NCBI GenBank assembly: GCA_035260845.1
Contig: DATFUL010000008.1
Span: 5,709 to 69,708, forward strand
Direction of reading: 5' to 3'
DNA: 64,000 bases
Source of the DNA: Patescibacteria group bacterium
GTDB taxonomy: Bacteria; Patescibacteriota; Microgenomatia; UBA8517
In this document: positions 8,579-49,312 of the stretch, piece by piece
Layout of the letters: each line of letters starts with the position of its first letter
Position numbering within the stretch: position 1 is the stretch's first letter
Made by a program: the position numbers and the translations under genes
Notes under the pieces: generated by a model
Databases searched by the model: none
Told to the model about the DNA's origin: nothing
The model's input: the letters and a program-made list of their open reading frames with translations, nothing else

Positions 8579-8634
8579 CAGGGTTCAATTCATCTCCAAA
8601 GCAAGTTTGGAGTTTTCTTGAATCCTGTTATAAT
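8579..8634 (+). promoter_or_regulatory. Conserved promoter module: CCAGGGTTCAATTCATC + hairpin + TTCTTGAA + extended -10 TGTTATAAT
   Basis: Same architecture and spacing recur at 19669-19724. -10 at 8626-8634. The downstream mreB ATG is at 8645. Confidence 0.45.
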
Positions 8635-8644
8635 CGTCCTACGT

Positions 8645-19668: not shown

Positions 19669-19724
19669 CCAGGTTCAATTCATCCGTGAATAAATTCACG
19701 GTCTTCTTGAAAATCTGGTATAAT
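19669..19724 (+). promoter_or_regulatory. Second copy of the conserved promoter module (CCAGGTTCAATTCATC + hairpin CGTGAAT-aa-ATTCACG + TTCTTGAA + TGGTATAAT)
   Basis: Aligns with 8579-8634. The conserved block sits at the same distance (31-32 nt) from the extended -10. The hairpin differs in sequence but keeps its pairing. Confidence 0.45.
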
Positions 19725-19748
19725 ATCAGTACTTTCAAACAACTTTCC

Positions 19749-20645
19749 ATGCGGAAACTAATCTACCCTTTACTTTTAGTGCTTTTGAGCCTGGTCTTTG
19801 TGGCTCCAGGGCATGTTTTAGCTAAAACCACACCTAGCACAAGTCCATTGCCATCAGCCTCCGCAAGCGCCACAGTTGTAGCTACCGCAACACCAACAAC
19901 CGTGCCAGACATTACTCGAAAGAGTGAGGAAACTTTAGGCCCCTTGGAGACTCTAATGATGTCGCAACAATTGACCTCAGTCTGGCCATATAACCCCATT
20001 AAATATGCAATTAGAGGAGCAGTAGGTTCAGGAGTTCCGGTGAACACAATAGTACTCTTACTTCTTTTGCCAATAATGACTTTTGTTATTGCCTTTACCA
20101 GGAACGTCGTTGGTATCCGGGGATTTGGAATTTTTCTGCCAGCAGCCTTATCCGTGGTATTTGTAGCCACCGGGCCAATTGTTGGAATTGGACTCTTCCT
20201 TATAATCGTTGTTGTTTCGACCATCTTTAGGCTGATTCTTAGAACACTCAAGATTAAGCTTCAATATTTGCCAAGAATGGCACTTATTCTTTGGGGAGTT
20301 GTTCTTGGAGTCTTGGGAGCACTATTCTTGGCTCCTTACCTAAAGTTTTCGGCTCTTTCCAATGTTTCTATATTTGCAGTTTTAATTCTTATTCTTCTTT
20401 CGGAAGATTTTACCCGCGTCCAGCTTGGGAAAAGTGCTAAAACAGCCGTAAGTCTTACTTTTCAAACCCTTGTGCTTTCACTGATATCTTTCTTCTTTTT
20501 GACCCTAAAGCCTTTGCAGGAGTATGTGTTACTCAACCCCGAAATTTCTTTGATTGGTGTAGCTATTCTTGATCTTGCCCTTGGTAAATATACAGGACTC
20601 CGGGTTATGGAATTCTACAGGTTTAGGAAATTAATTCAGTCATAA
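19749..20645 (+). CDS. 7-TM membrane protein with signal peptide and Thr/Pro/Ala-rich extracytoplasmic N-terminus
   Basis: MRKLIYPLLLVLLSLVFVAPGHVLA signal. Low-complexity TPSTSPLPSASASATVVATATPTT stretch. Seven hydrophobic helices. First gene of the ATP-grasp island. Confidence 0.55.
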   Translation: MRKLIYPLLLVLLSLVFVAPGHVLAKTTPSTSPLPSASASATVVATATPTTVPDITRKSEETLGPLETLMMSQQLTSVWPYNPIKYAIRGAVGSGVPVNTIVLLLLLPIMTFVIAFTRNVVGIRGFGIFLPAALSVVFVATGPIVGIGLFLIIVVVSTIFRLILRTLKIKLQYLPRMALILWGVVLGVLGALFLAPYLKFSALSNVSIFAVLILILLSEDFTRVQLGKSAKTAVSLTFQTLVLSLISFFFLTLKPLQEYVLLNPEISLIGVAILDLALGKYTGLRVMEFYRFRKLIQS

Positions 20646-20651
20646 TTTACA

Positions 20652-21968
20652 ATGAAGATATCTTCAATTTTAGGCTTAAATGCAAGAAGTCAGTTATTTG
20701 CTTACCGCTATAATAGTCGGCGTGGTAAAAACATTGCTGACAGTAAGTTGCAAACCGCCGGGGTCCTAAAGCGCGCTGGTGTACTTCACCCAAAAATATA
20801 TAAGATTCTTAGGGACCCAACTGGAATTACAACTTTTGACTGGAATAGTTTACCCGATAGATTTGCACTTAAACCCAGCCGGGGATTAGGTGGAGAAGGC
20901 ATTATTGTTGTTAAAAAGAAGCTTAAAGATGGAGGATGGCTAACAACTCAAAAAGAAAAAGTCACTATTAGCGATCTCAAACTTCATTCACTAGATATTT
21001 TGGAAGGCGCTTATTCAATGGGCAACGTACCTGATGTAGCATTTGTGCAGGAGTATGTGGGTAGGCATCCGGTTTTTAGGCGCTACGCTTACCGCGGAAC
21101 TCCCGATATCCGCATTATTATTTTTAATAAAGTTCCTGTTATGGCCATGCTTCGCTTGCCAACAAAAGAGTCCGGTGGCCGTGCCAATTTGCATCAAGGA
21201 GCGGTTGGAGTTGGGGTTGATATTGCAACAGGAATCACAACTAAGGCTATATGGCATGGGAATCAAATTGTATTCAAACCCGGTACAAATAGAAAACTTA
21301 GAGGAATAAAAATACCCAATTGGAATCAGATTCTTGAAACTGCAGTGAATACTCAAATAGCCTCGCACTTAGGCTATATAGGCGTCGACATTGTTCTACA
21401 TCCAGATAAAGGGCCAATGGTTCTTGAAATGAATGCTCAGCCCGGGCTTCAGATTCAACTCGCTAATATGGAGGGCTTAAGGCGTAGACTTGAACGTATT
21501 GATGACCTTGAAGTACGTGACGCTGAACATGGAGTTAAGATTGCTAAAGCCTTGTTTGCAGGCCGCTTCGCTGATCGCGCAGCCGCAATTGAAGGAATTA
21601 GAACAATCAAAGCAGTTGAGGAGGTTAAGGTTTTATCATCCGATTTAAAGCGCATCCCTGTTTTAGCCAAAATTGATACTGGTGCCTGGAGCAGTGCGAT
21701 TGATAAAAAATTTGCCAAGGAAATCGGAATCCTGGATAAAAGTAAGATACTTTGGTATAAACGTAAACTTAGTGCATTAGGTGAGGAAGAGCGTCCTGTT
21801 ATTCCGGTAACTTTTTGGATTGCGGGCCGAAAGATTAAAACTGACATGACGGTAGCCGATCGCAAACTTCTTAGATACCAAATACTTATTGGCCGCGAAG
21901 ATTTGCAGGGGTTCTTGGTAAGCCCTGAGATAGATATGGAAAATTTAAGGGAGGCTAAGTGGAAGTAA
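20652..21968 (+). CDS. ATP-grasp amide ligase (RimK/alpha-L-glutamate-ligase-related) fused to C-terminal retropepsin-like aspartic peptidase domain
   Basis: N-terminal ~300 aa has ATP-grasp composition. The C-terminal ~120 aa contains VLAKIDTGAWSSAID (D-T-G-A aspartyl protease signature) and ILIGREDLQGF. Confidence 0.6.
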   Translation: MKISSILGLNARSQLFAYRYNSRRGKNIADSKLQTAGVLKRAGVLHPKIYKILRDPTGITTFDWNSLPDRFALKPSRGLGGEGIIVVKKKLKDGGWLTTQKEKVTISDLKLHSLDILEGAYSMGNVPDVAFVQEYVGRHPVFRRYAYRGTPDIRIIIFNKVPVMAMLRLPTKESGGRANLHQGAVGVGVDIATGITTKAIWHGNQIVFKPGTNRKLRGIKIPNWNQILETAVNTQIASHLGYIGVDIVLHPDKGPMVLEMNAQPGLQIQLANMEGLRRRLERIDDLEVRDAEHGVKIAKALFAGRFADRAAAIEGIRTIKAVEEVKVLSSDLKRIPVLAKIDTGAWSSAIDKKFAKEIGILDKSKILWYKRKLSALGEEERPVIPVTFWIAGRKIKTDMTVADRKLLRYQILIGREDLQGFLVSPEIDMENLREAKWK

Positions 21969-21972
21969 CCCC

Positions 21973-22866
21973 ATGAAGAAGATTTTGATTCTCACTAGTG
22001 GCAAGAAGAAAAAACTTACACCTTTTAAGTTGTCTCTCCGAAATCTCCAAATAGACTTAACTACGGCCTCATTCAACGATGTCTATTCTGATTCAGTAAG
22101 CGGCGACCTTTTACTTAAGAAAGGCCCAGCTATTTCTAGATTTGAAATAATTTACTTTAGATTAGTTGGGAAGAGCCTGGAAACTGCCTTACTCGTTGCT
22201 GCTTATGCCAAGAAAAATGGAATACAAATTGTAGACAAAATATACGAAAATGCCCAAGTTCTGCCCATTACTCAAAGTAAGATTAAGGAAATGCAGGCTT
22301 TGAAAGATGCTAAAATCACAATCCCTAAAACTATTTTTGGATCTTTGGATCAAATTGCCCAAAAAGGTCCCACTGTTTTTAGGTTCCCCTTTGTAATTAA
22401 AAGTTCAACAGGGAGCCGCGGTCGTGAAGTATATAGCCCAAATAATACTACGGAACTTAAGTCACTCATTACAGTTCTTTCCAAAGAAGAAAAATTAGGT
22501 AAACAATTTTTTGCCCAGGAGTTTGTACCAACTACAAAAAGAATTAGGGTACTTATTGTTGGCGGCCAAATAATTGGTTCCATTGTCCAACTCACTAAGT
22601 GGAGAAAAAGAGTAACAGGTTATATGCCACAAGAAGACGAAAAAAAGATAGACAAATTTACTCCAACTATTGAAATGCAAAACTTGGCGAAGTTGGCTGT
22701 TGTTGCCGTTGGAATTGACATTGCTGGAGTTGATATTTTAGTTAACGAACAGACTGGTCAGAGTCTTGTTATCGAAGTTAATGCAGCGCCCAGTTGGAAG
22801 CTTATTAAAAAATACTGCAAAGTAAATGTTGAATATGAAATCCTTAAATTTATTGCAAAGATCTAA
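21973..22866 (+). CDS. RimK-like ATP-grasp ligase
   Basis: FPFVIKSSTGSRGREVY, LIVGGQIIGS and AGVDILV match RimK/GshB-type ATP-grasp motifs. Confidence 0.65.
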   Translation: MKKILILTSGKKKKLTPFKLSLRNLQIDLTTASFNDVYSDSVSGDLLLKKGPAISRFEIIYFRLVGKSLETALLVAAYAKKNGIQIVDKIYENAQVLPITQSKIKEMQALKDAKITIPKTIFGSLDQIAQKGPTVFRFPFVIKSSTGSRGREVYSPNNTTELKSLITVLSKEEKLGKQFFAQEFVPTTKRIRVLIVGGQIIGSIVQLTKWRKRVTGYMPQEDEKKIDKFTPTIEMQNLAKLAVVAVGIDIAGVDILVNEQTGQSLVIEVNAAPSWKLIKKYCKVNVEYEILKFIAKI

Positions 22867-22870
22867 ATCA

Positions 22871-23485
22871 ATGAAAAGCAAAAGCGAAAGCTTATATCAA
22901 AATAAATTCCATAAGTTTGGGTTTAGTCCAAAATCTCTTTTATGGAAAACCCCTGGCGCTGCACACCAAAGGTTCAGGCAGTTTTGGGCCGAGATTGATT
23001 TTACAAATAAAAAAGTTCTTGATATCGGCTGCGGATTTGGGGAGTTTGGTAAATTTATTTTGAAAAGATATAAGGGAGTTACATATACCGGTATTGATAT
23101 AAACTCTGATTTTATTGAAACCGCAAAGAGGGAAGTTCCGGATGGGAAGTTTATTAATGCTGATTTTTTGAAAGAAAAAGTAAATGGTACTTATGACATC
23201 GTCATTGCTAGTGGGGTCTTAAATTCGAACATGGGAAGTCAAAACCTAACCTTTCGAAAAAAAGCAATCAAAAAAATGTTTTCACTAACTAAAAATATTT
23301 TGGCATTCAATATGTTAGGTGGTCACCCGACCCAAATAAGCAAAAAAGGGAGTAATGTTTGGTATTCAGATAGCCTTGTTATCCTTGATTTTTGTATGAG
23401 TTTAACCCGCCGTGTGGTTTTGCGTACCAATTACCACCCTAAAGACTTTACAATAATAATGTACAAAGTTAAGTCTTCAGGATAA
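22871..23485 (+). CDS. Class I SAM-dependent methyltransferase
   Basis: VLDIGCGFGEFGKFI (motif I) and TYTGIDIN. Start moved to the ATG at 22871, just after the upstream stop. Confidence 0.6.
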   Translation: MKSKSESLYQNKFHKFGFSPKSLLWKTPGAAHQRFRQFWAEIDFTNKKVLDIGCGFGEFGKFILKRYKGVTYTGIDINSDFIETAKREVPDGKFINADFLKEKVNGTYDIVIASGVLNSNMGSQNLTFRKKAIKKMFSLTKNILAFNMLGGHPTQISKKGSNVWYSDSLVILDFCMSLTRRVVLRTNYHPKDFTIIMYKVKSSG

Positions 23486-23491
23486 ATATAT

Positions 23492-24421
23492 ATGAAAAAA
23501 ATTTTAGTACTAGCCGCTAAAAGAAGTGAAAATAAAGAAAAGCTAATTGCTTTCCTCCAAAGATATTTTGATAAAAAAGCAGAAGTTGTTTTAGGTATTT
23601 TCTCTGATGTAATATTCCAAATTGAAGGCGGTAAAATCCTCGTCGAAATTGATGGCCGTAATATTAATGATTTTGATTTAGTCTATTTTAGAAACACCTC
23701 CGGTTTCCAAGCAATGGCTGCAACCCTTTCGATTTATTTGGAAAGCACAGGGGTTAAATTTTTTGATAAATCTCATATTAGCGGCAGTTTTATGGGCGAT
23801 AAATTTACATCCCTTATGCGTTTAGCTGTAAACGGTTTGCCAATTGTTCCATCTTTTCTTTGTTGGAAGGGAGCAATTAAAAAAACCAAAAAAAGAATTG
23901 CTAAGGAATTTGGGTTTCCCATTGTTGCTAAAGAAGTTACAACTCAAAGAATGCAAAGTGTTTTCTTACTTAAATCATTACGTGATTTTGACAAATTACC
24001 GGACAAAACCGGACATGGTAACAATGCACGTTACTTGTTCCAAAAATTTATAACCTTCGATAAAGAATTTAGGATTTTAGTATTGGGTGAGAAAATTGGA
24101 ATAATTCATACAAAAACAGTGAGGGATAATACCGGTTTCCAAGTTGGGTATAACGATATGACTGAATACCCCAAGTTTTTAAGACCGGAAGAAATATCTA
24201 GTGTTATTAAAGAGACAGCAGTTAAAGCTGCAAAAGTTCTTAAAATTCAAATTGCCGGAGTAGACATTTGTAGGGAAGAGGCAACTGGCAAGACTTTTGT
24301 CTTTGAAGTAAATCGTGGCCCGGGACTCGAATACGACACAGCCGTTTCACAGGAGATGCCAAAGATCGCAGAATTCTTTGCTTATGAGCTTGGTATTAAA
24401 TTGCCGAAAAATAGGAGTTAA
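23492..24421 (+). CDS. RimK-like ATP-grasp ligase (third in island)
   Basis: FGFPIVAKEVTTQRMQSVFLL, ILVLGEKIG and IAGVDICREEATGKTFVFEVN. Confidence 0.6.
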   Translation: MKKILVLAAKRSENKEKLIAFLQRYFDKKAEVVLGIFSDVIFQIEGGKILVEIDGRNINDFDLVYFRNTSGFQAMAATLSIYLESTGVKFFDKSHISGSFMGDKFTSLMRLAVNGLPIVPSFLCWKGAIKKTKKRIAKEFGFPIVAKEVTTQRMQSVFLLKSLRDFDKLPDKTGHGNNARYLFQKFITFDKEFRILVLGEKIGIIHTKTVRDNTGFQVGYNDMTEYPKFLRPEEISSVIKETAVKAAKVLKIQIAGVDICREEATGKTFVFEVNRGPGLEYDTAVSQEMPKIAEFFAYELGIKLPKNRS

Positions 24422-30170: not shown

Positions 30171-31745
30171 TTAGATAGGATTTTGTGGATAAGTTGGGGG
30201 AGGGGGAGTTTTAAATGAACTTACAAGCACCGAAATGCCAAATCCAAGAGCAATTATGCTAAAAGTAATAATCGCAATATATTTAAGGTCAAGGCCGTTT
30301 GATGGCTTTGATGTTAATGTTGGGGCAGGAGTAGGTGTATTTACAAAACTCTCGTTTACTGCCGATTGTGATGCGGGCTTTGTTGTTACTTCACCTTTAT
30401 AGTAAACAACTTCTGGAGTTTGACTAGCCTTTGGTGTTGCCGGTTTTGCTGTTGGAGTAGGGGTTGTTTGACCACAACTTGCGTCATTTGGATAAAGGGG
30501 GTTTCTACAATAACCATTGTAACAGAAGTAATTTGCCTGACAATTACTGTTACTGCCACAGGTCCCGTTGCAAGAATTTGGATTGTCATATGTGTTTGAC
30601 AGGTTGGTTGGAGTAGGTGTTACTGTTGGGGTATTGGTTGGAAGTGGAGTATCTGTGGCAGTTGGAATGGGAGTATCGGTTGGTGTAGCACTGGGAGTAT
30701 TTGTAGGAACTCCAGCTATTGCATTATCGTAATCAAAAACATATTTCCACCAATTATCCCAAGTACCAGAAGTGGTTGAGGCAACTTTTGGGATATGGTT
30801 CAACCAAAATTCTTTCCAACCAAGACCTGTACAACCCCACCTTTCGCAGCCAAAAGTTTGCGTTTGTGTTGTTAGTGTGGGGTAGTTTGCATAATCCTCA
30901 CAACTTGATTCAGTTTGATTAGTGTTTGACCAATCATAATCAGTAGTACCGTTTGGTGGAATGTGAACTGTTCCGCAAGCAGAGTGGGATGTAAAATTTG
31001 TCCAAAAATCTATTGTGTTGTTTGTAAACACATGTGTCATTGTTCCTTCGAACCTGTGACCAAAGTCTTCCAGCATTTCGGACAGCCCTCTTTCGTAACT
31101 GAATCCCATTATGTGGAGATTTTTTGTACAACTTGACCCGAGTAGGGGCGGAGAATTTGTATTAAACGCGTCTGGTCCAGTCATTTCTGCTTCATAATAA
31201 CCAAACCATGGTCCACCCCAAAGCCAAAGTTCGTCAATTTCTCCTGAATTAACCTTTTCGCATACTTGATTGTCGCTCAAGATCTTTAGGTAGTTTACCA
31301 GCCATGGGTCATGACAATTTTGACTATTTGCAAGACAGGAAAGATATGAACTTTCTGTATAAATAAATCCGTCGTTTAAGTCTGGAAAAGAATTAGCATC
31401 AACTCTATCAACAATTTGAAAATTCGCATAGCCATTACTTAATTGATTTAAAGTTGAAGAGTAGGATGCTTCAAGCGCTTGTGGATCGTTCCAATTTTCA
31501 TACTCACTTAATTTTTGATTACCATGATTAACTAAAATCGGATCAAAATCGATAATCATAACCTTAATATTTTTTTGCCCAATTCCTGGAATTTGTTGAG
31601 CCTTATTTAACGGGTTAAAATTTTGTGTGACAACTGCCCAAATAAAAAGTGGGAGGGCAACCGCAAAGCCTACAACGAGCCCAAGTCCCAAAAGTCTTTT
31701 AGTTGATACTGGGAGATTTTTAAGATTGTTAAAAAACCGCTTCAC
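30171..31745 (-). CDS. Cell-surface protein with N-terminal signal anchor, Thr/Pro-rich linker, Cys-rich module and C-terminal TM anchor
   Basis: N-terminal TM, a large globular domain, then PTNTPSATPTDTPIPTATDTPLPTNTPTVTPTPT. A 10-Cys module (CNGTCGSNSNCQANYFCYNGYCRNP) follows, then a second TP-rich stretch and a C-terminal hydrophobic helix. Confidence 0.5.
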   Translation of the reverse strand: MKRFFNNLKNLPVSTKRLLGLGLVVGFAVALPLFIWAVVTQNFNPLNKAQQIPGIGQKNIKVMIIDFDPILVNHGNQKLSEYENWNDPQALEASYSSTLNQLSNGYANFQIVDRVDANSFPDLNDGFIYTESSYLSCLANSQNCHDPWLVNYLKILSDNQVCEKVNSGEIDELWLWGGPWFGYYEAEMTGPDAFNTNSPPLLGSSCTKNLHIMGFSYERGLSEMLEDFGHRFEGTMTHVFTNNTIDFWTNFTSHSACGTVHIPPNGTTDYDWSNTNQTESSCEDYANYPTLTTQTQTFGCERWGCTGLGWKEFWLNHIPKVASTTSGTWDNWWKYVFDYDNAIAGVPTNTPSATPTDTPIPTATDTPLPTNTPTVTPTPTNLSNTYDNPNSCNGTCGSNSNCQANYFCYNGYCRNPLYPNDASCGQTTPTPTAKPATPKASQTPEVVYYKGEVTTKPASQSAVNESFVNTPTPAPTLTSKPSNGLDLKYIAIITFSIIALGFGISVLVSSFKTPPPPTYPQNPI

Positions 31746-32819: not shown

Positions 32820-33101
32820 ATGGAAAGAAAAGTCGTAAGAAAATCGTCGAGATTATCAATAAGTCAGTCCGAATTCGCCTCCCAAACGGGAGTAACAGTT
32901 AACTTTCTTACTCAACTAGTTGATGCCGGATTGGTAACCCCAGATTACAAGACAAATAATGTAAACAATTATGGCGACGGTTATAGGACTTCTCAACTCT
33001 GGAAAGTGAAAGAAGCCAAAAAGATAAAAGACAAACATAAAAATTGGACTGCAGAAGATATTACCTTTTTAGTACCAAAGATGAAGCCCTCTCGATATTG
33101 A
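32820..33101 (+). CDS. Hypothetical small protein (93 aa), possible HTH
   Basis: ORF only. Confidence 0.25.
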   Translation: MERKVVRKSSRLSISQSEFASQTGVTVNFLTQLVDAGLVTPDYKTNNVNNYGDGYRTSQLWKVKEAKKIKDKHKNWTAEDITFLVPKMKPSRY

Positions 33102-34382: not shown

Positions 34383-34811
34383 CTATTCAAGGCCAATAAG
34401 TTTGGCGAGTTTTGTAGAAGAAAGGTCACTAATTTTCTTGATTTCAACTAATTTGGCTTTTACTAAATCTGCGTGTCTTTTTTTTTTGCTTTTCATGTTA
34501 TCGCCTTCGGTAATTGCAATTATATTGGGTTTAATTTTTTCAACTAATTTTTTGTAATCTTCATCAGAATTCATTTCTGGCAAAGATATTACTTCATCAA
34601 CAAAGTTCAAAGATTCCAACATTTCGCGTCTTTGCTTTTGGTTATGAACTGGGCGGCCCGGCCCTTTTAATCTCTTTGTAGTTTCATCGCTTTCCAGTGC
34701 AACGACTAGATAATCTCCATTTTTTTTCGCCTCTTTAAGAAAATTAACATGCCCATGGTGAAGGATATCGAATACTCCGCCAACCAAAACTTTTATCATT
34801 CTTTTTAGCAT
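34383..34811 (-). CDS. Cytidylyltransferase-like nucleotidyltransferase (HxGH family)
   Basis: LVGGVFDILHHGHVNFLKEAKKNGDYLVVAL is an (H/T)xGH nucleotidyltransferase motif as in TagD/RfaE-II/RibL. 142 aa. Confidence 0.6.
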   Translation of the reverse strand: MLKRMIKVLVGGVFDILHHGHVNFLKEAKKNGDYLVVALESDETTKRLKGPGRPVHNQKQRREMLESLNFVDEVISLPEMNSDEDYKKLVEKIKPNIIAITEGDNMKSKKKRHADLVKAKLVEIKKISDLSSTKLAKLIGLE

Positions 34812-34884
34812 TATACGGTTTGGGTTTCTAATTATAAAGAATAGAACATTAATCCTCTAATTATTTTGTGGTACTATAAATGAT

Positions 34885-35964
34885 ATGCCCAATGTAAAGG
34901 ATACTGAAGACGCTCCAAAAATAAAAAAACCTGTTATTAGAGATAGGATAAAACTTGCCATCGACCGTACTGTACTTAAAAAATTCCGTTTGGTTGTTGT
35001 TGCTTACTCAAGTGTTCAGCGGGAACATTTCGCTACAAAGGATGCCTATGAAGCAGAAATTGAAGTCGAACAGAGAGCAATAGAAGTTGCCGAAGAAGTT
35101 AGAAAATTGGGAATCCCGGTAAGGACTCTTCCCGGAGATCAATATTTTTATACAAATTTACTTGTAGATAAACCGGACCTTGTAATTAATTTAGTTGACA
35201 CACTTAAAGGTCGAGACCAACTCCAGCCCTCAGTACCAGCAGCTCTTGAGCTCGCCAACATTCCTTATACCGGGGCTGGAATGGAAGGATTGATAATAGG
35301 TAACAATCGCAATTTAACCAAAAGGCTTTTAATTGCATATGATGTTCCAACTCCACCCTTTCAGTTTATTCGCAGGGCTGGAACAAATATCGATGAAGAT
35401 TTGGGTGTTCCTTTGATAGTTAAACTTAATGAAGGCGGGGGAAGTGTGGGAATTAATAATAATGCCGTTAAAGATACCGAACGCGCCGCAAAGCTTCGCG
35501 CAAATAGCATGATTTCTACCTACCATTTTCCTGTAATTGTTGAGAAGTTTGTCGATGGCCCAGAAGTCACGGTTGTTGTGTTTGATGATGGGGTAAAAAG
35601 ACACGTTGTTATGGCCCAGAAGAAGTTTGGCATAAAGCCTGACGGCAAACATGAATTCACAAGTATCGAGTCATACGATAACTGGAAGTCATATAAATAT
35701 ATCCCGGTTGACGAGAGCAGTAAGTTTGAGATTAAAAAATTGGCGGTTCGGGCTTTTGGGGGACTTCAACATAAAGATTATGCAAAGTTTGATGTTAGGG
35801 TGGATGCAGATACCGGAATCCCATATTTTACAGACAGTAACCCAAATACAGCATTTGGCCCAGATAGAGGACTGCCAATGACAGAGGTATTGGCCATGAA
35901 TGGAGTAGAATTTTCGGATGTTTTGGCCTCTTTACTCTCCAAATATGCCAAGGATTTAGGCTGA
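34885..35964 (+). CDS. D-Ala-D-Ala-ligase-like ATP-grasp amide ligase
   Basis: N-terminal pre-ATP-grasp domain, central PLIVKLNEGGGSVGI and C-terminal Ddl-type arrangement. Confidence 0.6.
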   Translation: MPNVKDTEDAPKIKKPVIRDRIKLAIDRTVLKKFRLVVVAYSSVQREHFATKDAYEAEIEVEQRAIEVAEEVRKLGIPVRTLPGDQYFYTNLLVDKPDLVINLVDTLKGRDQLQPSVPAALELANIPYTGAGMEGLIIGNNRNLTKRLLIAYDVPTPPFQFIRRAGTNIDEDLGVPLIVKLNEGGGSVGINNNAVKDTERAAKLRANSMISTYHFPVIVEKFVDGPEVTVVVFDDGVKRHVVMAQKKFGIKPDGKHEFTSIESYDNWKSYKYIPVDESSKFEIKKLAVRAFGGLQHKDYAKFDVRVDADTGIPYFTDSNPNTAFGPDRGLPMTEVLAMNGVEFSDVLASLLSKYAKDLG

Positions 35965-35987
35965 ACCCATACTCGACAATTTATATT

Positions 35988-36683
35988 TTGTGTCGTAGAA
36001 TAGGCCAATATATGGTACTCGAGAAAAACCCCAAAACACGTCCAATTGCCAAAAGACTTCTTCAGCTTGAGGATAAAGTCAAAGGCAAACCTTTTGCTTC
36101 GATGGCTAGGGTGCTTGAACTTTCAAACTACAGCTGTGGACCAGCAACTCTTGAGATGTTACTTTCATTTGTTGGCTCTAAAGCTACCCAAAAAGAGCTA
36201 ATTAAGTCAATTCGTGTTCAAAAGACAATCAAACTCTATGGAATTAATATAAATGATATGGGACATGCCGTAAAAATCGTAAGCCGCGGCAAACTTGTAT
36301 TTTGGAGAAAACATCGAGCCAACGTTAGTGATATTGCTTTAACTATCGACAAGTTTAAATACCCAGTTGGAGTCGAGTGGCAGGGTGATTTTTATGAAAA
36401 TGAGGATGAGGACAGAGGTCATTACTCTGTTGTTACTAGTGTAAACAAAGAGTCGGGATTCTTAAGGATTGCAGACCCTTATTTTAATAGTTTTTTTAAA
36501 TATAAAGATCTTGATCGAAAGTACGCAATTAACGACTTTGTTAAAAAATGGTGGGATATAAATGAAATCAAAGTTGCAGGGTCGCCAAAAAGGCGCAAAA
36601 TTAAAGATACTCGAGTTATGTTTGTAATTGTTCCAAAAGGGGAAAACTGGCCCAAGAAACTAGGGATGGTAAAAGCCTCTTAA
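35988..36683 (+). CDS. Papain-like C39/BtrH-like cysteine peptidase or acyltransferase domain protein
   Basis: LSNYSCGPATLEMLLSFVG (catalytic Cys context) and RGHYSVVTSVNKESGFLRIADPY (catalytic His context). The start could instead be the M at 36012. Confidence 0.5.
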   Translation: MCRRIGQYMVLEKNPKTRPIAKRLLQLEDKVKGKPFASMARVLELSNYSCGPATLEMLLSFVGSKATQKELIKSIRVQKTIKLYGININDMGHAVKIVSRGKLVFWRKHRANVSDIALTIDKFKYPVGVEWQGDFYENEDEDRGHYSVVTSVNKESGFLRIADPYFNSFFKYKDLDRKYAINDFVKKWWDINEIKVAGSPKRRKIKDTRVMFVIVPKGENWPKKLGMVKAS

Positions 36684-36702
36684 ATCAATATACTTTCTTC
36701 AT

Positions 36703-37728
36703 ATGCGTGTAGCTCTTGCCTATAACGTCAAGAAAAACAAACCTTCTTCTGATCTTTCCAAGCAAACTGACTTGGAATTTGATCTTCCTTATGTAATTAA
36801 CGAAATCAAAAAATCTATTGAAGAATTAGGGCACACTATAATTAAAGTCGAAGCAGACGAAAATGCTTTTACCAAACTTAAGAAACTAAAAGGAAAAATA
36901 GATATTGTTTTTAATATTGCCGAAGGCTTGTGGGGTGAAGCCCGGGAAACTCAAATTCCAATAATCTGCGAAATACTTAAAATTCCATATACTCATTCGG
37001 GTCCAACCACTCACACAATTTCGCTTGATAAATCATTTACGAATTTAATTCTAAAGGGGGCGGAGGGCATAAATGTTCCGGAGTCACATGTTGTTAAAGA
37101 AAAAAACTGGGTTCTACCCAGTCGGCTTAAGTTTCCATTGATCGTAAAACCCAATAGCGAGGGTTCAAGTAAAGGTGTACTTGATGCCAATGTGGTTAAT
37201 AATCAACGTGACCTAAAAAAACGTGTGGAATTTGTTTCAGAAAAGTTCACGAAAGAGGTATTAATTGAAGAATACGTTGATGGCCGTGAATTTACTGTCG
37301 CTGTGATGGGTAATGAAGAATTAACAGTCCTCCCAATTATTGAGCAAAAGTTTGATTTTCTGCCCAAAGGAATGAACAAAATTGCCAGTTTTGAACTTAA
37401 ATGGCTTTACGAAGATTCTCTGACAGATCTGCATGATGCCTACGATTGTCCGGCAAAATTATCAACGAGTCAAAGAAAAGAGATAGAGCGTGTTACAAAA
37501 GAGGTTTATAGAATTTTGGACGTAAAAGATTGTGCAAGGCTGGACTTTAGAATGAATAAAAAAGGCAAACTTTATTTTATCGAAATAAATACAATACCTG
37601 GAATTAACCCAAGTTTAGACGGAATTTCTTATTTTCCACTTGCAGCAAGAACAGCAGGCATTAATTATAAAGAGATGGTAGGCAAGATTCTTGAAATGGC
37701 AGAGAAAAGGTATAAAATTCTGGGATAG
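36703..37728 (+). CDS. D-Ala-D-Ala-ligase-like ATP-grasp amide ligase (second)
   Basis: FPLIVKPNSEGSSKGV, EEYVDGREFTVAV and a C-terminal Ddl_C-like region (ARLDFRMNKKGKLYFIEINTIPG). Confidence 0.65.
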   Translation: MRVALAYNVKKNKPSSDLSKQTDLEFDLPYVINEIKKSIEELGHTIIKVEADENAFTKLKKLKGKIDIVFNIAEGLWGEARETQIPIICEILKIPYTHSGPTTHTISLDKSFTNLILKGAEGINVPESHVVKEKNWVLPSRLKFPLIVKPNSEGSSKGVLDANVVNNQRDLKKRVEFVSEKFTKEVLIEEYVDGREFTVAVMGNEELTVLPIIEQKFDFLPKGMNKIASFELKWLYEDSLTDLHDAYDCPAKLSTSQRKEIERVTKEVYRILDVKDCARLDFRMNKKGKLYFIEINTIPGINPSLDGISYFPLAARTAGINYKEMVGKILEMAEKRYKILG

Positions 37729-37730
37729 TT

Positions 37731-38882
37731 ATGCCAGCGGAACAAAATCCAAATAGTGAAAAATTTTCTGCCCGGAAAGTTCGTGCTGGTGCAATTGCTT
37801 ACTACTATCAAGGCTTCATCGAGTCAGCCCAAGAAAATGGGATAGAACTTAATGATCAACATAAAATTGTTAAAGGTGTAAAAAGATTCTTGGATGAATA
37901 TAAAACATTAATGGGTGGAGTAATGCCCACAATGGATCAACTCCTTGAATTTAAGGAGCAGACAATGGCTGTTGCAGAACTTCAGAAAAAAGAAAGTCAT
38001 TTGAGTCAGCGTGATTTTATAAGAGCCAATAAAGACAAATTTGACATAGATTTACTGGGAAGTGCAGCAAACACAAGGCTTATCCGTTCGTATCAAGACT
38101 TTGAAAATAAAGGCGGATTTTTAATGAATTTACTTCCTATTTATTTAGGTAAGCTTACATATGGCATAGGCGGCGATATTGACCGCGATCCAGATGAAAA
38201 CGCATGGGCAAGTGCTTTTTTGATGGATAAAGCAACCGACAGAATAATTAACGACTTGGCCTTTGAATTTAGTGGTTACAATACCGTTCTAGAGTTGGGT
38301 GCAGGCAGTGGCAATTTTTCCAAAAAGTTTTTAAATAAACATGAAGATGGATATGCAGTTGTAACAGACAAAAATCCTGAAACTCAAAAAACGGTAAGAG
38401 AAAATTTAAAGTCATCAGAATCATTTGAAGGGATAGATTTTGATGTTTCGGAATTGGATATGAAAGATACTGAGGGGTTAAAAAGAATAGCAGAGAAACT
38501 AGGGAACCAGAAAATTATTTTACATATTGGTTATATTCTTCATGAGAATTGGGAATTGGCGCTTGAGACTCTGAACTCTCTTTCAGAAGTTTTTAAAGAA
38601 AAAAATGTAATTTTTGCTTTCTCAGAATATTATTTACAGGATGAAATAACAGATGAAGTCCCATTGGATTTTCAAGGTCTTCATTATCCAACTCAAGATT
38701 TACTCAGTAGAGATGAACTTATGGTAATTGCAAATCACTATGGTTTTGTAAGGTGTAGAGATAGAAAAGGGAATGATATGGAAACTGTTCATAACTACAC
38801 AACTCGCATTAATCCAGATGGCTCAGAATCAAGGGAAATAATGAATTCCACCACTTACTGGACACTCTCTTCTCCTGTATAA
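37731..38882 (+). CDS. Two-domain protein: N-terminal unknown domain + C-terminal class I SAM methyltransferase
   Basis: VLELGAGSGNFSKKF (motif I) at ~aa 185. The N-terminal ~180 aa have no recognisable motif. Confidence 0.55.
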   Translation: MPAEQNPNSEKFSARKVRAGAIAYYYQGFIESAQENGIELNDQHKIVKGVKRFLDEYKTLMGGVMPTMDQLLEFKEQTMAVAELQKKESHLSQRDFIRANKDKFDIDLLGSAANTRLIRSYQDFENKGGFLMNLLPIYLGKLTYGIGGDIDRDPDENAWASAFLMDKATDRIINDLAFEFSGYNTVLELGAGSGNFSKKFLNKHEDGYAVVTDKNPETQKTVRENLKSSESFEGIDFDVSELDMKDTEGLKRIAEKLGNQKIILHIGYILHENWELALETLNSLSEVFKEKNVIFAFSEYYLQDEITDEVPLDFQGLHYPTQDLLSRDELMVIANHYGFVRCRDRKGNDMETVHNYTTRINPDGSESREIMNSTTYWTLSSPV

Positions 38883-38911
38883 TGGGAACTTCGTGAGGAA
38901 TATTTACCCGT

Positions 38912-40102
38912 ATGTTTAAAGGAAACAGAAACTTACTAATCATTGCCCTTATCGCGCTTGTAAACATGCTTGGCTATGGAATTATTATTCCAATTCTTTA
39001 TTCTTATTCCAAAAAGTTTGGCCTAACAGATTTTCAAAATGGCCTTCTTTTCGCATTATTTTCCATTTGTCAGTTTATATCAACCCCGATTATCGGAAGA
39101 CTTTCAGACAAGTACGGCAGGCGGCCAATGCTTTTAATTTCGATAATTGGAACCGCAGTCTCATTTTTTGTAATGGCCTTTGCTCCGAGCGCAATTTTTC
39201 TTTTTATAGCGCGTGCTGTTGATGGACTTACAGCAGGCAACATCCCAGTCATTTTTGCTGTTATTTCTGATTCAACTAAACCCGAGGAACGTGCCAAAGC
39301 ATTTGGTTTAATTAGCGCCGCATTTAATTTTGGCTTTATTTTTGGCCCTGCAACGGCCGCATTAACTATTCATTTTGGAACTCCCGTACCTTTTATTATT
39401 GCGGGAACAATCACTGTAATTGCCGCAACTCTTACTGCGATTTATTTGCCGGAAACAAACAAACACATGAATGAAGGCGTTGTAAAGCATAGTAAATTAA
39501 TCGATTTTCCAAAGCTTTGGCACACCTTGTTTGATCCAAATGTCGGAATGACGTTTCTTATTTCTTTAGTCTTTTTCTTAGCATTTTCCTGCGCCGTTAT
39601 TTATGGCTTTCAACCGTTCTTAATCAATGTCTTAAAAATTTCGGCTTCAACTAATGCGGTTTTGTTTACTATTTTTGGCATAATCGGTCTTATTTCGCAA
39701 ACTTTCTTTGTTGAGATGGTTTCCAAAAAGTTAGGGATGAAGAAAGCTTTTACAGTCTCGATTCTTTTTACTTTTGTAGCATTTGTGATTATGTATTTGT
39801 CCCACGCACTGCCTATTTTTATTGTTGCCATGGTAATCCTGTCTTTATTTAATAGTGTTGTTCAAACTTTGATTCCAACAATTTTATCTAACGAAGCAGA
39901 TGCAAGTTCCCAGGGCTCTGTAATGGGACTTAATTCTTCGTATCAGAGTATTGGCATGATTATTGGCCCAATTTTAGGTGGGCTAGTTGCGACCATTTCT
40001 GTTCCACTTCCATTTTTGGTTGGAGCCCTTCTTGTTTTGGTTTGCTATTTTATGTCCTCCAAAATTCTAAGGCCTGGAGTTAAAAAAGAATCAGCCTTTT
40101 AG
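38912..40102 (+). CDS. MFS transporter (drug/metabolite:H+ antiporter-type exporter)
   Basis: GRLSDKYGRRPML (MFS motif A), 12 TM helices and motif-C-like GPILGG. Confidence 0.8.
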   Translation: MFKGNRNLLIIALIALVNMLGYGIIIPILYSYSKKFGLTDFQNGLLFALFSICQFISTPIIGRLSDKYGRRPMLLISIIGTAVSFFVMAFAPSAIFLFIARAVDGLTAGNIPVIFAVISDSTKPEERAKAFGLISAAFNFGFIFGPATAALTIHFGTPVPFIIAGTITVIAATLTAIYLPETNKHMNEGVVKHSKLIDFPKLWHTLFDPNVGMTFLISLVFFLAFSCAVIYGFQPFLINVLKISASTNAVLFTIFGIIGLISQTFFVEMVSKKLGMKKAFTVSILFTFVAFVIMYLSHALPIFIVAMVILSLFNSVVQTLIPTILSNEADASSQGSVMGLNSSYQSIGMIIGPILGGLVATISVPLPFLVGALLVLVCYFMSSKILRPGVKKESAF

Positions 40103-40382: not shown

Positions 40383-40808
40383 TTATTTTAGTAATGACTG
40401 GGGGTCGACCAATTCCCATTCTTGTTCGATTAGCTTTTCGTCGAGTGGATTTGCCTTTTGCCAGTCCACGCCAGACTTTGGAATCCAAACACCCTTAACG
40501 GGAAATCTACTACCTTTCGGTATTTCCCTACCATATTTAGTGTTTAGGTCTTCTGACAACTCGCCTTGTAATACAGCTGGGGAGTGGTGGAGCTCTTTTG
40601 CTCTTAATATGGATAACACCATTGCCCATCCAGGAGCGTCTCCAACATATTGGATTACATTAGGTTCAACATGTTTATTCTCTTTTGATTTATCAAAAAA
40701 GACGCCATCTTTTTCTACGACTGCACATTTTTTATAGTTTTCAAGCGTAGTTGCAAAGTGAATTGTTGTTTGCGGTTCTATTTCACTCCTATCTGGGCTT
40801 TTAGGCAT
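40383..40808 (-). CDS. Hypothetical protein (141 aa)
   Basis: ORF only. Confidence 0.3.
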   Translation of the reverse strand: MPKSPDRSEIEPQTTIHFATTLENYKKCAVVEKDGVFFDKSKENKHVEPNVIQYVGDAPGWAMVLSILRAKELHHSPAVLQGELSEDLNTKYGREIPKGSRFPVKGVWIPKSGVDWQKANPLDEKLIEQEWELVDPQSLLK

Positions 40809-46527: not shown

Positions 46528-47601
46528 GTGAAATTTAAATTAATTAATCCAATTGATCGCTTCTTAGGACTTTTCTCGCACGATATTGGAATAGATTTGG
46601 GAACTGCAAACACTTTAGTTTATGTACTGGGTAAAGGAGTTGTAATTCGTGAACCTTCAGCTGTTGCACGGCATAAAAAAACAAAAGAAATTTTAGCAAT
46701 TGGGGCTTCCGCTAAAAAGATGTATGGCAGAGCGCCTTCGACAATTGAGGCAATTAGGCCACTACGAGACGGGGTTATTGCAGACTTTGACGCAACGGCC
46801 GCAATGCTTAAGTATTACATTAAAAGAGTTCACGAGGGGGGTACCGTTATACCAAAGATTCCGCGCCCCAGGGTAATTGTTGGAATCCCATCAGGAGTCA
46901 CCGAAGTTGAAAGACGGGCCGTTGCTGATGCTGTAATGGACGCCGGGGCCCGAGAAGTTTATTTAATAGAAGAACCTATGGCTGCTGCAATCGGAGCAAA
47001 ATTGCCCGTAGAAAGCCCCGAGGGCAATTTTATAGTCGACATTGGTGGCGGAACTTCTGAAATTGCTGTAATTTCTTTGGGAGGAATTGTTTTGGGCCGC
47101 TCCGTGCGCGTTGCGGGGGATGAAATGGACGAGGCAATAATTAATTATGTAAGGCTTAAATACTCTCTTCTTTTAGGTCAACCAACCGCCGAGGCTGTAA
47201 AAATTGGGATTGCCTCAGTTGTAACAGAAAGCGGGGAAGCAAAACAAAAGTTTACTGTTGTACGCGGGCGTGACCTGGAAACTGGTTTACCCAAATCAAT
47301 AAAACTTACAAATAACGAAATTGGGGAAGCCCTCTCCCCAATAATTCAAGAAATTATAGTTAATATCGTGGATACTTTGGAAGAAACTCCACCCGAACTT
47401 ACAAGTGACATAATGGAGCGGGGAATTACACTTGCAGGAGGAGGCTCACTTTTGCCTGGAATCGATAAAGCAATTTCAGAAGCCACTCATATGCCGGTTT
47501 GGATCGCCGAGGACCCGTTAACCTGCGTAGTTAGGGGTTGCGGTGCGCTTCTGGAAAATCCAGAACTATTAAAAAGAGTTAGAGTAACAAAAGGTCTCTA
47601 A
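46528..47601 (+). CDS. mreB: MreB (paralogue 2), adjacent to PBP2
   Basis: IGIDLGTANTLVYVLGKGVVIREPSAVA, DIGGGTSE and LAGGGSLLPG. Confidence 0.85.
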   Translation: MKFKLINPIDRFLGLFSHDIGIDLGTANTLVYVLGKGVVIREPSAVARHKKTKEILAIGASAKKMYGRAPSTIEAIRPLRDGVIADFDATAAMLKYYIKRVHEGGTVIPKIPRPRVIVGIPSGVTEVERRAVADAVMDAGAREVYLIEEPMAAAIGAKLPVESPEGNFIVDIGGGTSEIAVISLGGIVLGRSVRVAGDEMDEAIINYVRLKYSLLLGQPTAEAVKIGIASVVTESGEAKQKFTVVRGRDLETGLPKSIKLTNNEIGEALSPIIQEIIVNIVDTLEETPPELTSDIMERGITLAGGGSLLPGIDKAISEATHMPVWIAEDPLTCVVRGCGALLENPELLKRVRVTKGL

Positions 47602-47689: not shown

Positions 47690-49312
47690 ATGAATTCTTT
47701 TTCTTCTAATAATGATTCCTGGCTTTCTTGGTTTTTAAGGGGAACTTTAATTCTTCTTTTTTTAATCCTTTTTGCCAAACTTTTTGAAGTTCAAATAATT
47801 AAGGGGAACTTTTATAGAAGTCTTTCCGAAGAAAATAGAATTCGCCATATTCCGCTTCCCGCAGCTCGTGGGAAAATAATGGCCCGCGGCGGGGAAGCAC
47901 TAGCTGATAACGTTGCAATTAAAAAAGCAGTTAAATTTACTCCGGGGGCCCCGGCTGTTCTTTCTGAAGATCTAACAAATGCGAATCCAGATGAAATTGT
48001 TACGGATTATAAAAGAGTTTACCCATTGGCTGAAAACTTTGCCCATGCATCTGGGTATTTGTCAGTAGTATCCGATAAAGAGGTTGGTACAGTGGACCCA
48101 GATTGTCCAGAGAAAGGAATAAGACCAAGTGGAATGTTGGTAGGAGTCACCGGACTTGAACAAGAATATGAATGTCAGCTCTTGGGAATTCCAGGGGAGG
48201 AACTGGTAGAAGTTAATACTGCAGGCAAAAAAATTAGAGTTTTGGGAGTCAAGAATCCTGTTCCTGGAACCAACTTAAAAACATCAATTGACTTCGGGCT
48301 TCAAAAGGAACTTGCTATTAATATGGATAAAAAAGGGGCAGCTATTGTGACTGATCCAAATGGTCAAATCTTAGCTTTTTACTCAAGCCCCAGTTTTGAT
48401 CCAAATCTTTTAATAAATAAAGATAATCCCGAAAAAGTTTCGGCACTTCTTAAAAATTCTGACCTTCCATTTTTTGACCGGGTAATAAGCGGAACTTTCC
48501 ATCCAGGGTCGGTTTTTAAGCCATTAGTTGCAATTGCAGCACTTGAAGAAGGCGCAATCGATAAAGATTTTACGTTTAACGATCCGGGAATAATTACTGT
48601 TAATAAATTTACCTACACCAATTGGTATTTTACGGAATATGGAAGACTGGAAGGTGTAGTTAACTTAGTTAAAGCACTGGCCCGCTCTACTGACACATTC
48701 TTTTATAAAGTTGGGGAAATGGTTGGACCAGTTAACATTGCCAAATGGGCCGATGTTTTTGATTTAGACAAACAAACTGGAGTGGATTTGCCTGGAGAAG
48801 CAAAAGGGTTAATCCCAACTCCTGAATGGAAACAAAAAACAATTCATGAGGGCTGGTTTTTAGGCAATACTTACAACATGTCTATTGGCCAGGGTGACGT
48901 TTCTGTAACCCCGATTGAACTCAATACTTATATTTCAGCAATTGCCAGTAATGGGAAGCTTTGCCAGCCACAATTTATTTTTTCTTCGTCTCCGGTTTGT
49001 AGGCAAATAAGAATTGCTCAAAATAATTTAGACTTAGTAAAAGAAGGCATGCGTGCAGCTTGTACAACAGGCGGAACCGCTTACACTTTTTTTGATTTTA
49101 GTGCCAAGCACGGTGGAACCACAGTAGCCTGCAAAACTGGAACCGCTGAAGTTGGAGTAACGGGAGAACCAAATGCCTGGTTTACATTTTTTAGCCCAAT
49201 CGAAAACCCTCAAATAGTTTCAACAATTGTTTTTGAAAAGGGTGGGCAAGGATCAGAAGTTGCGGGCCCGGTTGCTAGGAAAATTGCAGATTATTACTTC
49301 TCTTCACGATAA
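47690..49312 (+). CDS. mrdA: Penicillin-binding protein 2 (elongasome transpeptidase)
   Basis: N-terminal TM. SVFKP (SxxK), a SxN-like motif and KTGTAEV (KTG). Confidence 0.85.
   Translation: MNSFSSNNDSWLSWFLRGTLILLFLILFAKLFEVQIIKGNFYRSLSEENRIRHIPLPAARGKIMARGGEALADNVAIKKAVKFTPGAPAVLSEDLTNANPDEIVTDYKRVYPLAENFAHASGYLSVVSDKEVGTVDPDCPEKGIRPSGMLVGVTGLEQEYECQLLGIPGEELVEVNTAGKKIRVLGVKNPVPGTNLKTSIDFGLQKELAINMDKKGAAIVTDPNGQILAFYSSPSFDPNLLINKDNPEKVSALLKNSDLPFFDRVISGTFHPGSVFKPLVAIAALEEGAIDKDFTFNDPGIITVNKFTYTNWYFTEYGRLEGVVNLVKALARSTDTFFYKVGEMVGPVNIAKWADVFDLDKQTGVDLPGEAKGLIPTPEWKQKTIHEGWFLGNTYNMSIGQGDVSVTPIELNTYISAIASNGKLCQPQFIFSSSPVCRQIRIAQNNLDLVKEGMRAACTTGGTAYTFFDFSAKHGGTTVACKTGTAEVGVTGEPNAWFTFFSPIENPQIVSTIVFEKGGQGSEVAGPVARKIADYYFSSR

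Follow-up and report, generated by a model that had tools for sequence, protein, structure and literature searches.

Pairings of an amide ligase with a papain-superfamily enzyme are already known in kind. In GspSA and trypanothione synthetase-amidase, a ligase is fused or coupled to a papain-superfamily Cys-His amidase for the same bond; GspSA consists of an N-terminal CHAP amidase and a GSP_synth-type ligase. Other examples are BtrJ/BtrH of butirosin and CtaD/CtaG of closthioamide biosynthesis and the predicted DUF3335-GNAT-ATP-grasp assemblies, the DUF3335-GNAT fusions having been noted as possible peptide ligase systems (PMC10318531). Here we describe a pair from a 64,000-nucleotide stretch of a Patescibacteria contig (the window), in which the gene of a Ddl-like ATP-grasp amide ligase (AG1, 34885-35964, + strand) is followed by that of a papain-fold Cys-His-Asp enzyme (the C39-like protein, 36012-36683, + strand). 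Judged by its model score and residues, AG1 is not a D-Ala-D-Ala ligase, and it alone among the neighbours of the C39-like gene is universally conserved. An earlier reading of the window (the original prediction) had placed both genes in an island of five or six genes for an exported modified peptide. We found no description in the searchable literature of a Ddl-derived ligase and a C39_2-type cytoplasmic enzyme encoded as a strict, often overlapping bicistron. Genomes of the candidate phyla radiation (CPR; Patescibacteria) are tiny, and most of their conserved genes of unknown function are thought to be key to their unusual biology; AG1-C39 is a case in point.

The best sequence relative of AG1, and of a second Ddl-like ATP-grasp ligase encoded 3' of the C39-like gene (AG2, 36703-37728, + strand), is Ddl, of the family that includes VanA/VanC; both keep its ATP/Mg residues and the equivalent of Glu15. 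The logic of the VanA-VanX/VanXY systems, a Ddl-like ligase of altered specificity together with a peptidase, is also that of AG1-C39. The partner of AG1 is a papain-fold thiol enzyme, whereas VanX and VanY are Zn-dependent peptidases. Wall-related genes adjoin AG1-C39 (alr, murF-like and ddl in Shapirobacteria, VanW-like genes elsewhere), but VanH, VanR and VanS are absent from these loci.

One metagenomic protein (P0273), in which the AG1 and C39-like domains are fused in frame, recalls GspSA. However, GspSA combines CHAP with GSP_synth, whereas a C39_2-like and a Ddl-like domain are combined here, and no match to the GspSA families was obtained with Pfam or NCBIfam; the analogy is one of architecture only. 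The butirosin and closthioamide enzymes are a true functional precedent for an ATP-grasp protein paired with a papain-like one (PMC7183216). Those pathways need peptidyl or acyl carrier proteins (PCP/ACP) and a decarboxylase, whereas AG1-C39 loci show no carrier motif: a crude regular expression for the phosphopantetheine-attachment motif (GxDS[LIVM]) matched 0 of 2053 small open reading frames (ORFs) within 5 kb of the loci, and PP-binding was not among the operon-mate families shown in a Pfam census. The BtrH likeness of the original prediction was not recovered either. BtrH_N (PF14399) gave no match at E <= 0.1 in the window protein or in 41 family members, no carrier-protein gene was recognised at any locus, and CtaG is structurally less similar to the C39-like protein than are C39 and PeiR. 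A thiotemplated pathway of the BtrH type was therefore rejected.

With the assemblies of DUF3335, Guanylate_cyc_2 or C39_2 domains with GNAT and ATP-grasp proteins, the C39-like family shares fusions to GNAT domains, here in either order; their ligase is RimK-like, whereas AG1 is Ddl-like. The double-glycine leader peptidases (C39 of ABC exporters) have the same fold and the same Gln-Cys-His-Asp residues. They are domains of ABC exporters, whereas the C39-like protein is a stand-alone cytoplasmic protein of 223 residues with no leader-peptide gene beside it. PeiR and PeiW belong to an archaeal or phage context and show 17% identity to the C39-like protein. For phytochelatin synthase (C83), there was no significant match to Pfam Phytochelatin; marginal matches occurred in five of 41 family members. 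Two further natural-product types were tried: a ribosomally synthesised and post-translationally modified peptide of the graspetide/microviridin type was rejected, as there was no MdnB/MdnC-type NCBIfam model among the matches listed (best 25 per protein) and no conserved small ORF, and a bacilysin-type L-amino-acid-ligase cluster does not fit, as ligase and exporter are not conserved together.

Linkage of AG1 and the C39-like gene

Related loci were obtained by exact protein look-up (L001-L006, L087 and L088), and 80 came from a motif scan (PVG[VI]EWQG, taken from an alignment of 10 sequences) in which each species was represented by one genome. Every ORF at these loci was classified against the window proteins, and 82 non-redundant loci were counted. 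In 79 of the 82, the C39-like gene directly follows AG1, and both are on one strand. At two further loci, the C-terminus of AG1 falls at the contig edge, and the one true exception without AG1 is a highly divergent copy from Anaerolineaceae (L086). The pair is found in Woese-, Shapiro-, Gottesman- and Roizmanbacteria, WWE3, Paceibacterota, Saccharibacteria and Chloroflexota (Anaerolineales). The proposed functional link between the ATP-grasp and the C39-like protein is thus upheld by adjacency, by overlapping frames in many loci and by the fusion protein.

At L086 (1966-5123), the C39-like copy is the most divergent of all (30% identity) and is flanked by a 448-residue multi-transmembrane transporter-like protein and a Methyltransf_11 methyltransferase. 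Another locus (L045, 5974-7243) has two tandem C39-like genes 3' of AG1. Several of the records (L008-L010, L016, L021, L065 and others) are titled 'uncultured Gammaproteobacteria/Pseudomonadales' or 'Bacteroidota'; as they show synteny of the Woesebacteria or Anaerolineales type and 80-90% identity to the window AG1, these taxonomic labels are probably wrong.

In the window, the longest ORF of the C39-like gene begins at TTG 35988. The start is probably ATG 36012, giving 223 residues as in the database copy (P0001) and all close homologues. Members from outside the Woesebacteria-like group are without the first ~20 residues. At 20 or more loci, the sole in-frame start 5' of the catalytic Cys is an ATG inside the 3' end of AG1, the two frames overlapping by 17-38 nt, a pattern characteristic of translational coupling.

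A search of 1.84 billion representative proteins for the C39-like family returned 389 family clusters. P0273 is the one in-frame AG1-C39 fusion among them. In at least five proteins the C39-like domain is fused to a GNAT of the RimJ/RimL type (Acetyltransf_3), which stands before or after it. The GNAT is called by Pfam in P0277, P0284, P0288 and P0330, whereas the call for P0268/P0283 rests on a source's RimJ/RimL name; P0294 has an unassigned extra domain that resembles the GNAT of the fusions. The two GNAT fusions with readable contigs (L089 and L090) stand alone, with no AG1, and an NCBIfam search of the GNAT-C39 fusions returned nothing. The GNAT-C39 fusion is a second, uncharacterised architecture of the C39-like family. 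Since the C39-like domain pairs with either an ATP-grasp ligase or a GNAT, the common job of the partner would be acylation of an amine.

Across lineages as distant as Woesebacteria and Anaerolineales, and constantly paired with the thiol peptidase gene, AG1 is 51-90% identical to the window copy (median 66%). The C39-like median is 35%, and at every one of the 79 loci the identity is higher for AG1. The conservation of AG1 is similar to that of the metabolic enzyme Gmd in the same genomes (77-83% versus 77-90%). In the Woesebacteria-like genomes, the lineage of the window, the locus lies in a core region, with L1/L11/NusG/SecE/RNase HII/S21 upstream and M50/L28/fmt/def downstream; such conserved synteny argues that it was not acquired as an island. 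Its GC content (0.371) is close to that of the window (0.383), so it is no compositional island, and the flavour of horizontal acquisition and secondary metabolism in the original prediction is lost. The database copies with 100% identity come from a Patescibacteria metagenome-assembled genome, and the majority of the other named homologues are also from Patescibacteria. AG1-C39 is best read, with modest confidence, as a vertically inherited housekeeping function of Patescibacteria and Anaerolineae.

A defence or phage origin of the pair is unlikely. The PADLOC defence models have no match in AG1, the C39-like protein, AG2 or the cytidylyltransferase of the locus; the methyltransferase has a weak generic match (mad2, 21.8 bits). 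Among 2.9 million viral contigs, there was one lone C39-like relative, without AG1. It is a protein of 169 residues on an IMG/VR phage contig (L091, 3959-4468) with the motifs YTCGPASL, GHYSVIVG and HWWD and no ATP-grasp partner, two genes upstream of a 548-residue ORF that, by look only, is a putative terminase large subunit.

No further gene accompanies the pair throughout. An AG2-like gene is directly 3' of the C39-like gene in 10 of the 82, as well as in L087 and L088; at L080 the AG2-like protein has 26% identity only. The cytidylyltransferase is present at 16 of the 82 loci, an upstream major facilitator superfamily (MFS) gene at 14 and GDP-mannose dehydratase at 19. The first two are confined to a Woesebacteria-like subset. 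The methyltransferase has homologues (33-34% identity) at two loci only, L009 and L010, where they lie between the cytidylyltransferase and AG1, and the second MFS gene (38912-40102) has no homologue beside AG1-C39 at any of the 81 other loci. The Pfam census of 42 putative operon mates was heterogeneous, with no consistent third partner. By this comparison, only two genes form a core, and the apparent biosynthetic island around them is a chance neighbourhood. The locus is neither a horizontally acquired antibiotic island nor a secondary-metabolite cluster; its core is the AG1-C39 pair, and the methyltransferase and exporter are lineage-specific neighbours. In Woesebacteria-like genomes, AG2 joins the module as a third, lineage-specific member.

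The two ligases and the C39-like enzyme

Both ligases match Dala_Dala_lig_C (AG1 55 bits, AG2 134 bits). As the criterion for Ddl, we took the curated cut-off of NCBIfam PRK01372 (243 bits), and both fall below it, AG1 with 96.3 and AG2 with 194.4 bits. Bona fide CPR Ddl proteins encoded near AG1 in Shapirobacteria reach 345 (L046) and 334 bits (L075) and keep the diagnostic GGxSSEREVS and YEAKY motifs; AG2 is 26-31% identical to them. The closest solved structures of both ligases are Ddl, and for AG1 only Ddl (E about 1e-14 to 1e-18).

Residues are numbered after what we take to be the sequence of Escherichia coli DdlB, whose length and key residues were checked and which matches the PDB alignment from residue 40 on. 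In both families the equivalents of K144, E180, E187, D257, E270 (Asp in AG1) and N272 do not vary, which together with the Pfam matches places them in the ATP-grasp superfamily. AG1 retains E15, K144, E180, E187, D257 and N272. Its 76 sequences show invariant changes (K97R, S150G, deletion of K215, Y216S, R255K, E270D and G276A/S), and at the D-Ala2 site and omega-loop the Ddl residues are replaced by others fixed in the family. AG2 retains E15, K97, K144, S150, K215, R255, D257, E270, N272 and G276; its omega-loop has an invariant ELKW (Y216W) and an insertion of six residues, and the N-terminal GGxSxEREVS motif is missing. The full set of Ddl specificity features (S150, K215-Y216, R255 and GGxSxEREVS) is found in neither ligase. 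Both keep Glu15, the residue by which Ddl holds the alpha-amino group of the amino acid being activated. The retained ATP/Mg ligands and Glu15 together with the altered specificity residues indicate that AG1 and AG2 are amino-acid-activating amide ligases whose second substrate is not D-Ala.

The C39-like protein matches Peptidase_C39_2 (30 bits) and Peptidase_C39 (21.5 bits) and has the two motifs reported for the product of 35988-36683, NYSCGPATLEML and GHYSVVT. In 41 diverse homologues (24-52% identity), Cys42 and His137 are invariant, and the oxyanion Gln36 and Asp155 are at least 90% conserved. The AlphaFold2 model (pLDDT 85.3), the Pfam matches, the structure match and the alignment agree on a papain-like fold with the catalytic Gln, Cys, His and Asp of Peptidase C39. 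By these residues, the C39-like protein is predicted to be an intact thiol enzyme. Weak matches to Guanylate_cyc_2 (9 of 41 family members) and DUF3335 (1 of 41) were also seen. The original prediction had named two findings that would count against it, ligases of the housekeeping type and loss of the Cys/His residues in homologues, and neither was observed.

The best structural match of the C39-like model is the pseudomurein endoisopeptidase PeiR (17% identity), although its lead over other C39-like folds is marginal. PeiR cuts an isopeptide bond on the epsilon-amine of Lys. Two Trp-rich motifs specific to the family, PVGVEWQG and RWWD, are sequence neighbours of the catalytic His, and a strongly acidic loop, EDEDxGHY, of low model confidence, comes just before it. 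Loop and motifs hint at a cationic substrate. The soluble proteins of the locus contain zero hydrophobic segments, AG1 having no transmembrane segment, and are thus cytoplasmic; the C39-like protein would be a stand-alone soluble enzyme of the cytoplasm. Among the 82 loci, no ABC transporter and no conserved small ORF for a leader peptide was found.

Function of the pair

The sole recurrent functional theme among the neighbours is the D-Ala branch of wall synthesis. In a Shapirobacteria locus (L046, 1071-5925), a divergent ddl (345 bits) is followed by alr (303 bits), a murF-like gene, AG1 and the C39-like gene, and the murF-like gene overlaps the start of AG1 by 8 nt. A second locus (L075, 2850-6624) has a divergent ddl and then murF-like, AG1 and C39-like genes with no alr, and the order murF-like - AG1 - C39 is found in L052 and L042. 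The murF-like proteins score 156-180 bits (156 in L046) against a cut-off of 289 and may therefore be paralogues themselves. Genes of the PBP1A type flank the pair at L035, L043 and L048, and VanW-like genes precede it at L045, L055 and L070. In the lineage of the window, AG2 as third gene is likewise Ddl-like. The Shapirobacteria gene order suggests that the acceptor could be a peptidoglycan stem-peptide precursor. The diamino acid of the stem peptide can bear an amino-acid branch on its epsilon-amine, which is added either by ATP-grasp ligases, such as the D-aspartate ligase of Enterococcus, or by GNAT-fold Fem transferases.

Our preferred reading, to which we give a probability of about 0.35, is that AG1-C39 is a cytoplasmic pair that makes and then trims or transfers an amino-acyl-amine bond on a cationic amine acceptor, likeliest a peptidoglycan stem-peptide precursor, with AG2 adding a second ligation. 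The functional unit would be the co-translated two-gene module, extended by AG2 in this lineage. AG1 would convert a free alpha-amino acid into its acyl-phosphate and join it to an amine acceptor other than the D-Ala of the Ddl reaction. The C39-like thiol enzyme would attack the same linkage through an acyl-enzyme intermediate, and the outcome would be trimming (amidase or isopeptidase) or transfer (transpeptidase). On a cell-wall precursor, the product could be a branch of one amino acid at the epsilon-amine of the diamino acid in the stem peptide, or a stem peptide with an alternative terminus. In Woesebacteria-like genomes, AG2 would supply a second Ddl-like ligation. That ligase and thiol enzyme share one bond, that the acceptor amine is cationic and that peptidoglycan is involved, we infer from the features above.

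Several points weigh against this reading. The link to peptidoglycan comes from one lineage (four related Shapirobacteria loci) and scattered neighbours, and, as small CPR genomes contain many wall genes, an overall enrichment of wall genes is not demonstrable. A ligase and a hydrolase for the same bond at 1:1 would be a futile cycle unless regulated. The AlphaFold2 model of AG1, built with 22 close homologues, is unusable (pLDDT 44.7). Finally, the window holds no canonical ddl.

Action on peptidoglycan precursors would amount to an unrecognised wall step of CPR and Chloroflexi with a Ddl paralogue of new specificity; were the substrate instead a small molecule or a protein, the pair would be a new ligase/amidase system. 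It is possible, though doubtful, that AG1-C39 represents an undescribed ancient two-enzyme pathway of Patescibacteria and Anaerolineae by which a cell-wall precursor or a conserved protein receives an amino-acid (iso)peptide branch that is then edited. Its enzymes, a ligase derived from Ddl but with new specificity and a cytoplasmic isopeptidase or transpeptidase derived from C39, would then carry out a new core step of envelope or proteome modification in the candidate phyla radiation. The annotations 'D-alanine-D-alanine ligase' and 'bacteriocin exporter peptidase domain' are wrong for these genes, and the conserved pair is a worthwhile and directly testable target.

An unlikely alternative is the metabolism of small-molecule conjugates, in the manner of GspSA or of glutathione synthetase together with phytochelatin synthase, in which AG1 would make a dipeptide or amino-acyl-amine (a thiol peptide, an amino-acyl polyamine or a compatible-solute dipeptide, for example) and the C39-like protein would act as amidase or transpeptidase; in the window genome, the methyltransferase would methylate the product. 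The ligase and papain-fold amidase within one polypeptide in P0273 mirror the architecture of GspSA, AG1 evolves as slowly as Gmd, the acidic loop suggests a cationic ligand, and there is a structural similarity to phytochelatin synthase-like proteins. The Phytochelatin matches are marginal, and CHAP, GSP_synth and glutathione synthetase gave no match at all. The two-domain look of the methyltransferase, that of small-molecule methyltransferases, is a weak point in favour, but its homologues are limited to L009 and L010. Neither a transporter nor a precursor-supply gene is conserved with the pair.

Equally improbable in our estimate is a post-translational tail cycle, in which the peptidase would expose or trim a protein terminus or side chain and the ligase, or the fused GNAT, would cap it with an amino acid or acetyl group. 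Such a cycle on a conserved protein would be analogous to RimK/RimB acting on ribosomal protein S6 or to tubulin tyrosine ligase with vasohibin. RimJ/RimL-type GNATs are the ones fused to the C39-like domain, and both C39 and UfSP-type relatives cleave proteins. Assemblies of papain-like peptidase, GNAT and ATP-grasp proteins have been proposed to act in peptide tagging (Iyer et al. 2009, as cited in PMC10318531). The Woesebacteria-like locus adjoins the block of ribosomal-protein genes and NusG, but this nearness is lost outside that one lineage, and none of the neighbouring genes that could encode a substrate is conserved. The Glu for the alpha-amino group is retained in AG1, which argues for activation of a free amino acid and not of a protein carboxylate.

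The exported modified peptide (antibiotic or signal) of the original prediction, to be made by two ligases, a BtrH/C39-like acyltransferase and the methyltransferase and released by the MFS exporter, is largely refuted by the comparative data, and we hold it very improbable. The locus itself invites such a view: five co-directional genes are separated by spacers of 23, 19, 2 and 29 nt (the first being 47 nt if the C39-like protein starts at ATG 36012), there is no convincing internal terminator, and the MFS protein is of the drug-efflux type. The closthioamide and butirosin enzymes are precedents for an ATP-grasp protein with a papain-like transacylase (PMC7183216). Against it, the exporter is unique to this genome and the methyltransferase nearly so, a BtrH_N match and a carrier-protein motif are lacking as described above, no precursor peptide is conserved, and the core pair is vertically inherited in core synteny at normal GC. 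The island and antibiotic reading should be dropped.

That AG1 or AG2 is the housekeeping D-Ala-D-Ala ligase, with the C39-like gene as an unrelated neighbour, was rejected as the least probable reading of all, since, although Ddl models and structures are the best hits of both, most of the catalytic residues of Ddl are retained in AG2, the window has no other Ddl and the Joint Genome Institute (JGI) names the homologues D-alanine-D-alanine ligase (NCBI only 'ATP-grasp domain-containing protein'), both score below the Ddl cut-off, loci with AG1 can carry a bona fide CPR Ddl as well, AG1 is without K215, Y216, S150 and R255, AG2 has the altered omega-loop and no GGxSxEREVS and is missing at this locus in most related genomes, and the AG1-C39 linkage is too strict for chance.

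Neighbouring genes and the 19.7-24.4 kb cluster

The six ORFs of the original prediction are present with the same coordinates and strands, and of its domain calls those for CTP_transf_like, two Dala_Dala_lig_C, Peptidase_C39_2 and MFS_1 were reproduced; that for BtrH_N was not, and the methyltransferase stayed below threshold. Short spacers between the co-directional genes were likewise seen. Promoter and terminator scans gave no excess over shuffled expectation, and the ends of the operon are thus undefined.

The small nucleotidyltransferase (34383-34811, - strand) is divergent from AG1, at a gap of 73 nt. It contains HHGH, an instance of the HxGH motif, and matches CTP_transf_like (66 bits), but it is below every equivalog cut-off (RfaE domain II 101 versus 181 bits; TagD 69 versus 165 bits). 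In some genomes, guanylate kinase follows it. This cytidylyltransferase is a lineage-specific neighbour in the Woesebacteria-like subset, outside the core.

The putative S-adenosylmethionine-dependent methyltransferase (37731-38882, + strand) has an N-terminal helical region of ~160 residues. Its motif I, LELGAGSG, is conserved in the two homologues, but all Pfam matches are sub-threshold (best 19.6 bits versus a cut-off of 27), so that the assignment made in the original prediction is supported by the motif and by sub-threshold matches. It is weakly similar to the small-molecule methyltransferase Plu4894 (E 0.05), and this faint two-domain likeness hints at a small product in these genomes. 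The methyltransferase lies directly beside AG1 in two other genomes and so may be a true accessory that occurs sporadically, its membership of the module being uncertain. A 409-residue gene in the corresponding place after AG2 at L088 is not a homologue (15% identity).

The last gene (38912-40102, + strand) encodes a DHA1-type MFS transporter, Tet(A)/(B)/(C)-like, with 10 hydrophobic segments (MFS_1, 250 bits). The idea of a dedicated exporter does not survive its absence from all other loci, the upstream MFS gene being present at so few. Beyond the locus lie two ORFs with no Pfam or NCBIfam match, one of 93 residues (32820-33101) and one of 141 residues (40383-40808, - strand). In related genomes, ORFs of similar size without a Pfam match stand between Gmd and the upstream MFS gene, the slot of the 93-residue ORF.

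A second group of amidoligase genes in the window (19686-24421) had been taken for a repeat of the same gene logic and a paralogous system. It encodes a 7TM_transglut membrane protein, an ATPgrasp_ST protein whose C-terminal part is Zn_protease-like, a RimK-like protein, a methyltransferase of the S-adenosylmethionine-dependent kind and another RimK-like protein. Its ATP-grasp families are other than those of AG1 and AG2 and it has no papain-like gene, and paralogy with the 34.4-40.1 kb locus was rejected on these grounds. The cluster is a different amidoligase system, of the RimK type, and resembles RimK/RimB-type peptide-tail systems.

Elsewhere in the window, two MreB paralogues are encoded (8618-9652 and 46528-47601), the second of which adjoins a PBP2-type transpeptidase (47690-49312). 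A 524-residue protein (30171-31745, - strand) is predicted from sequence features alone to be a surface protein: hydrophobic segments stand at its N- and C-terminal ends, and between them come a long Thr/Pro-rich linker and a Cys-rich module.

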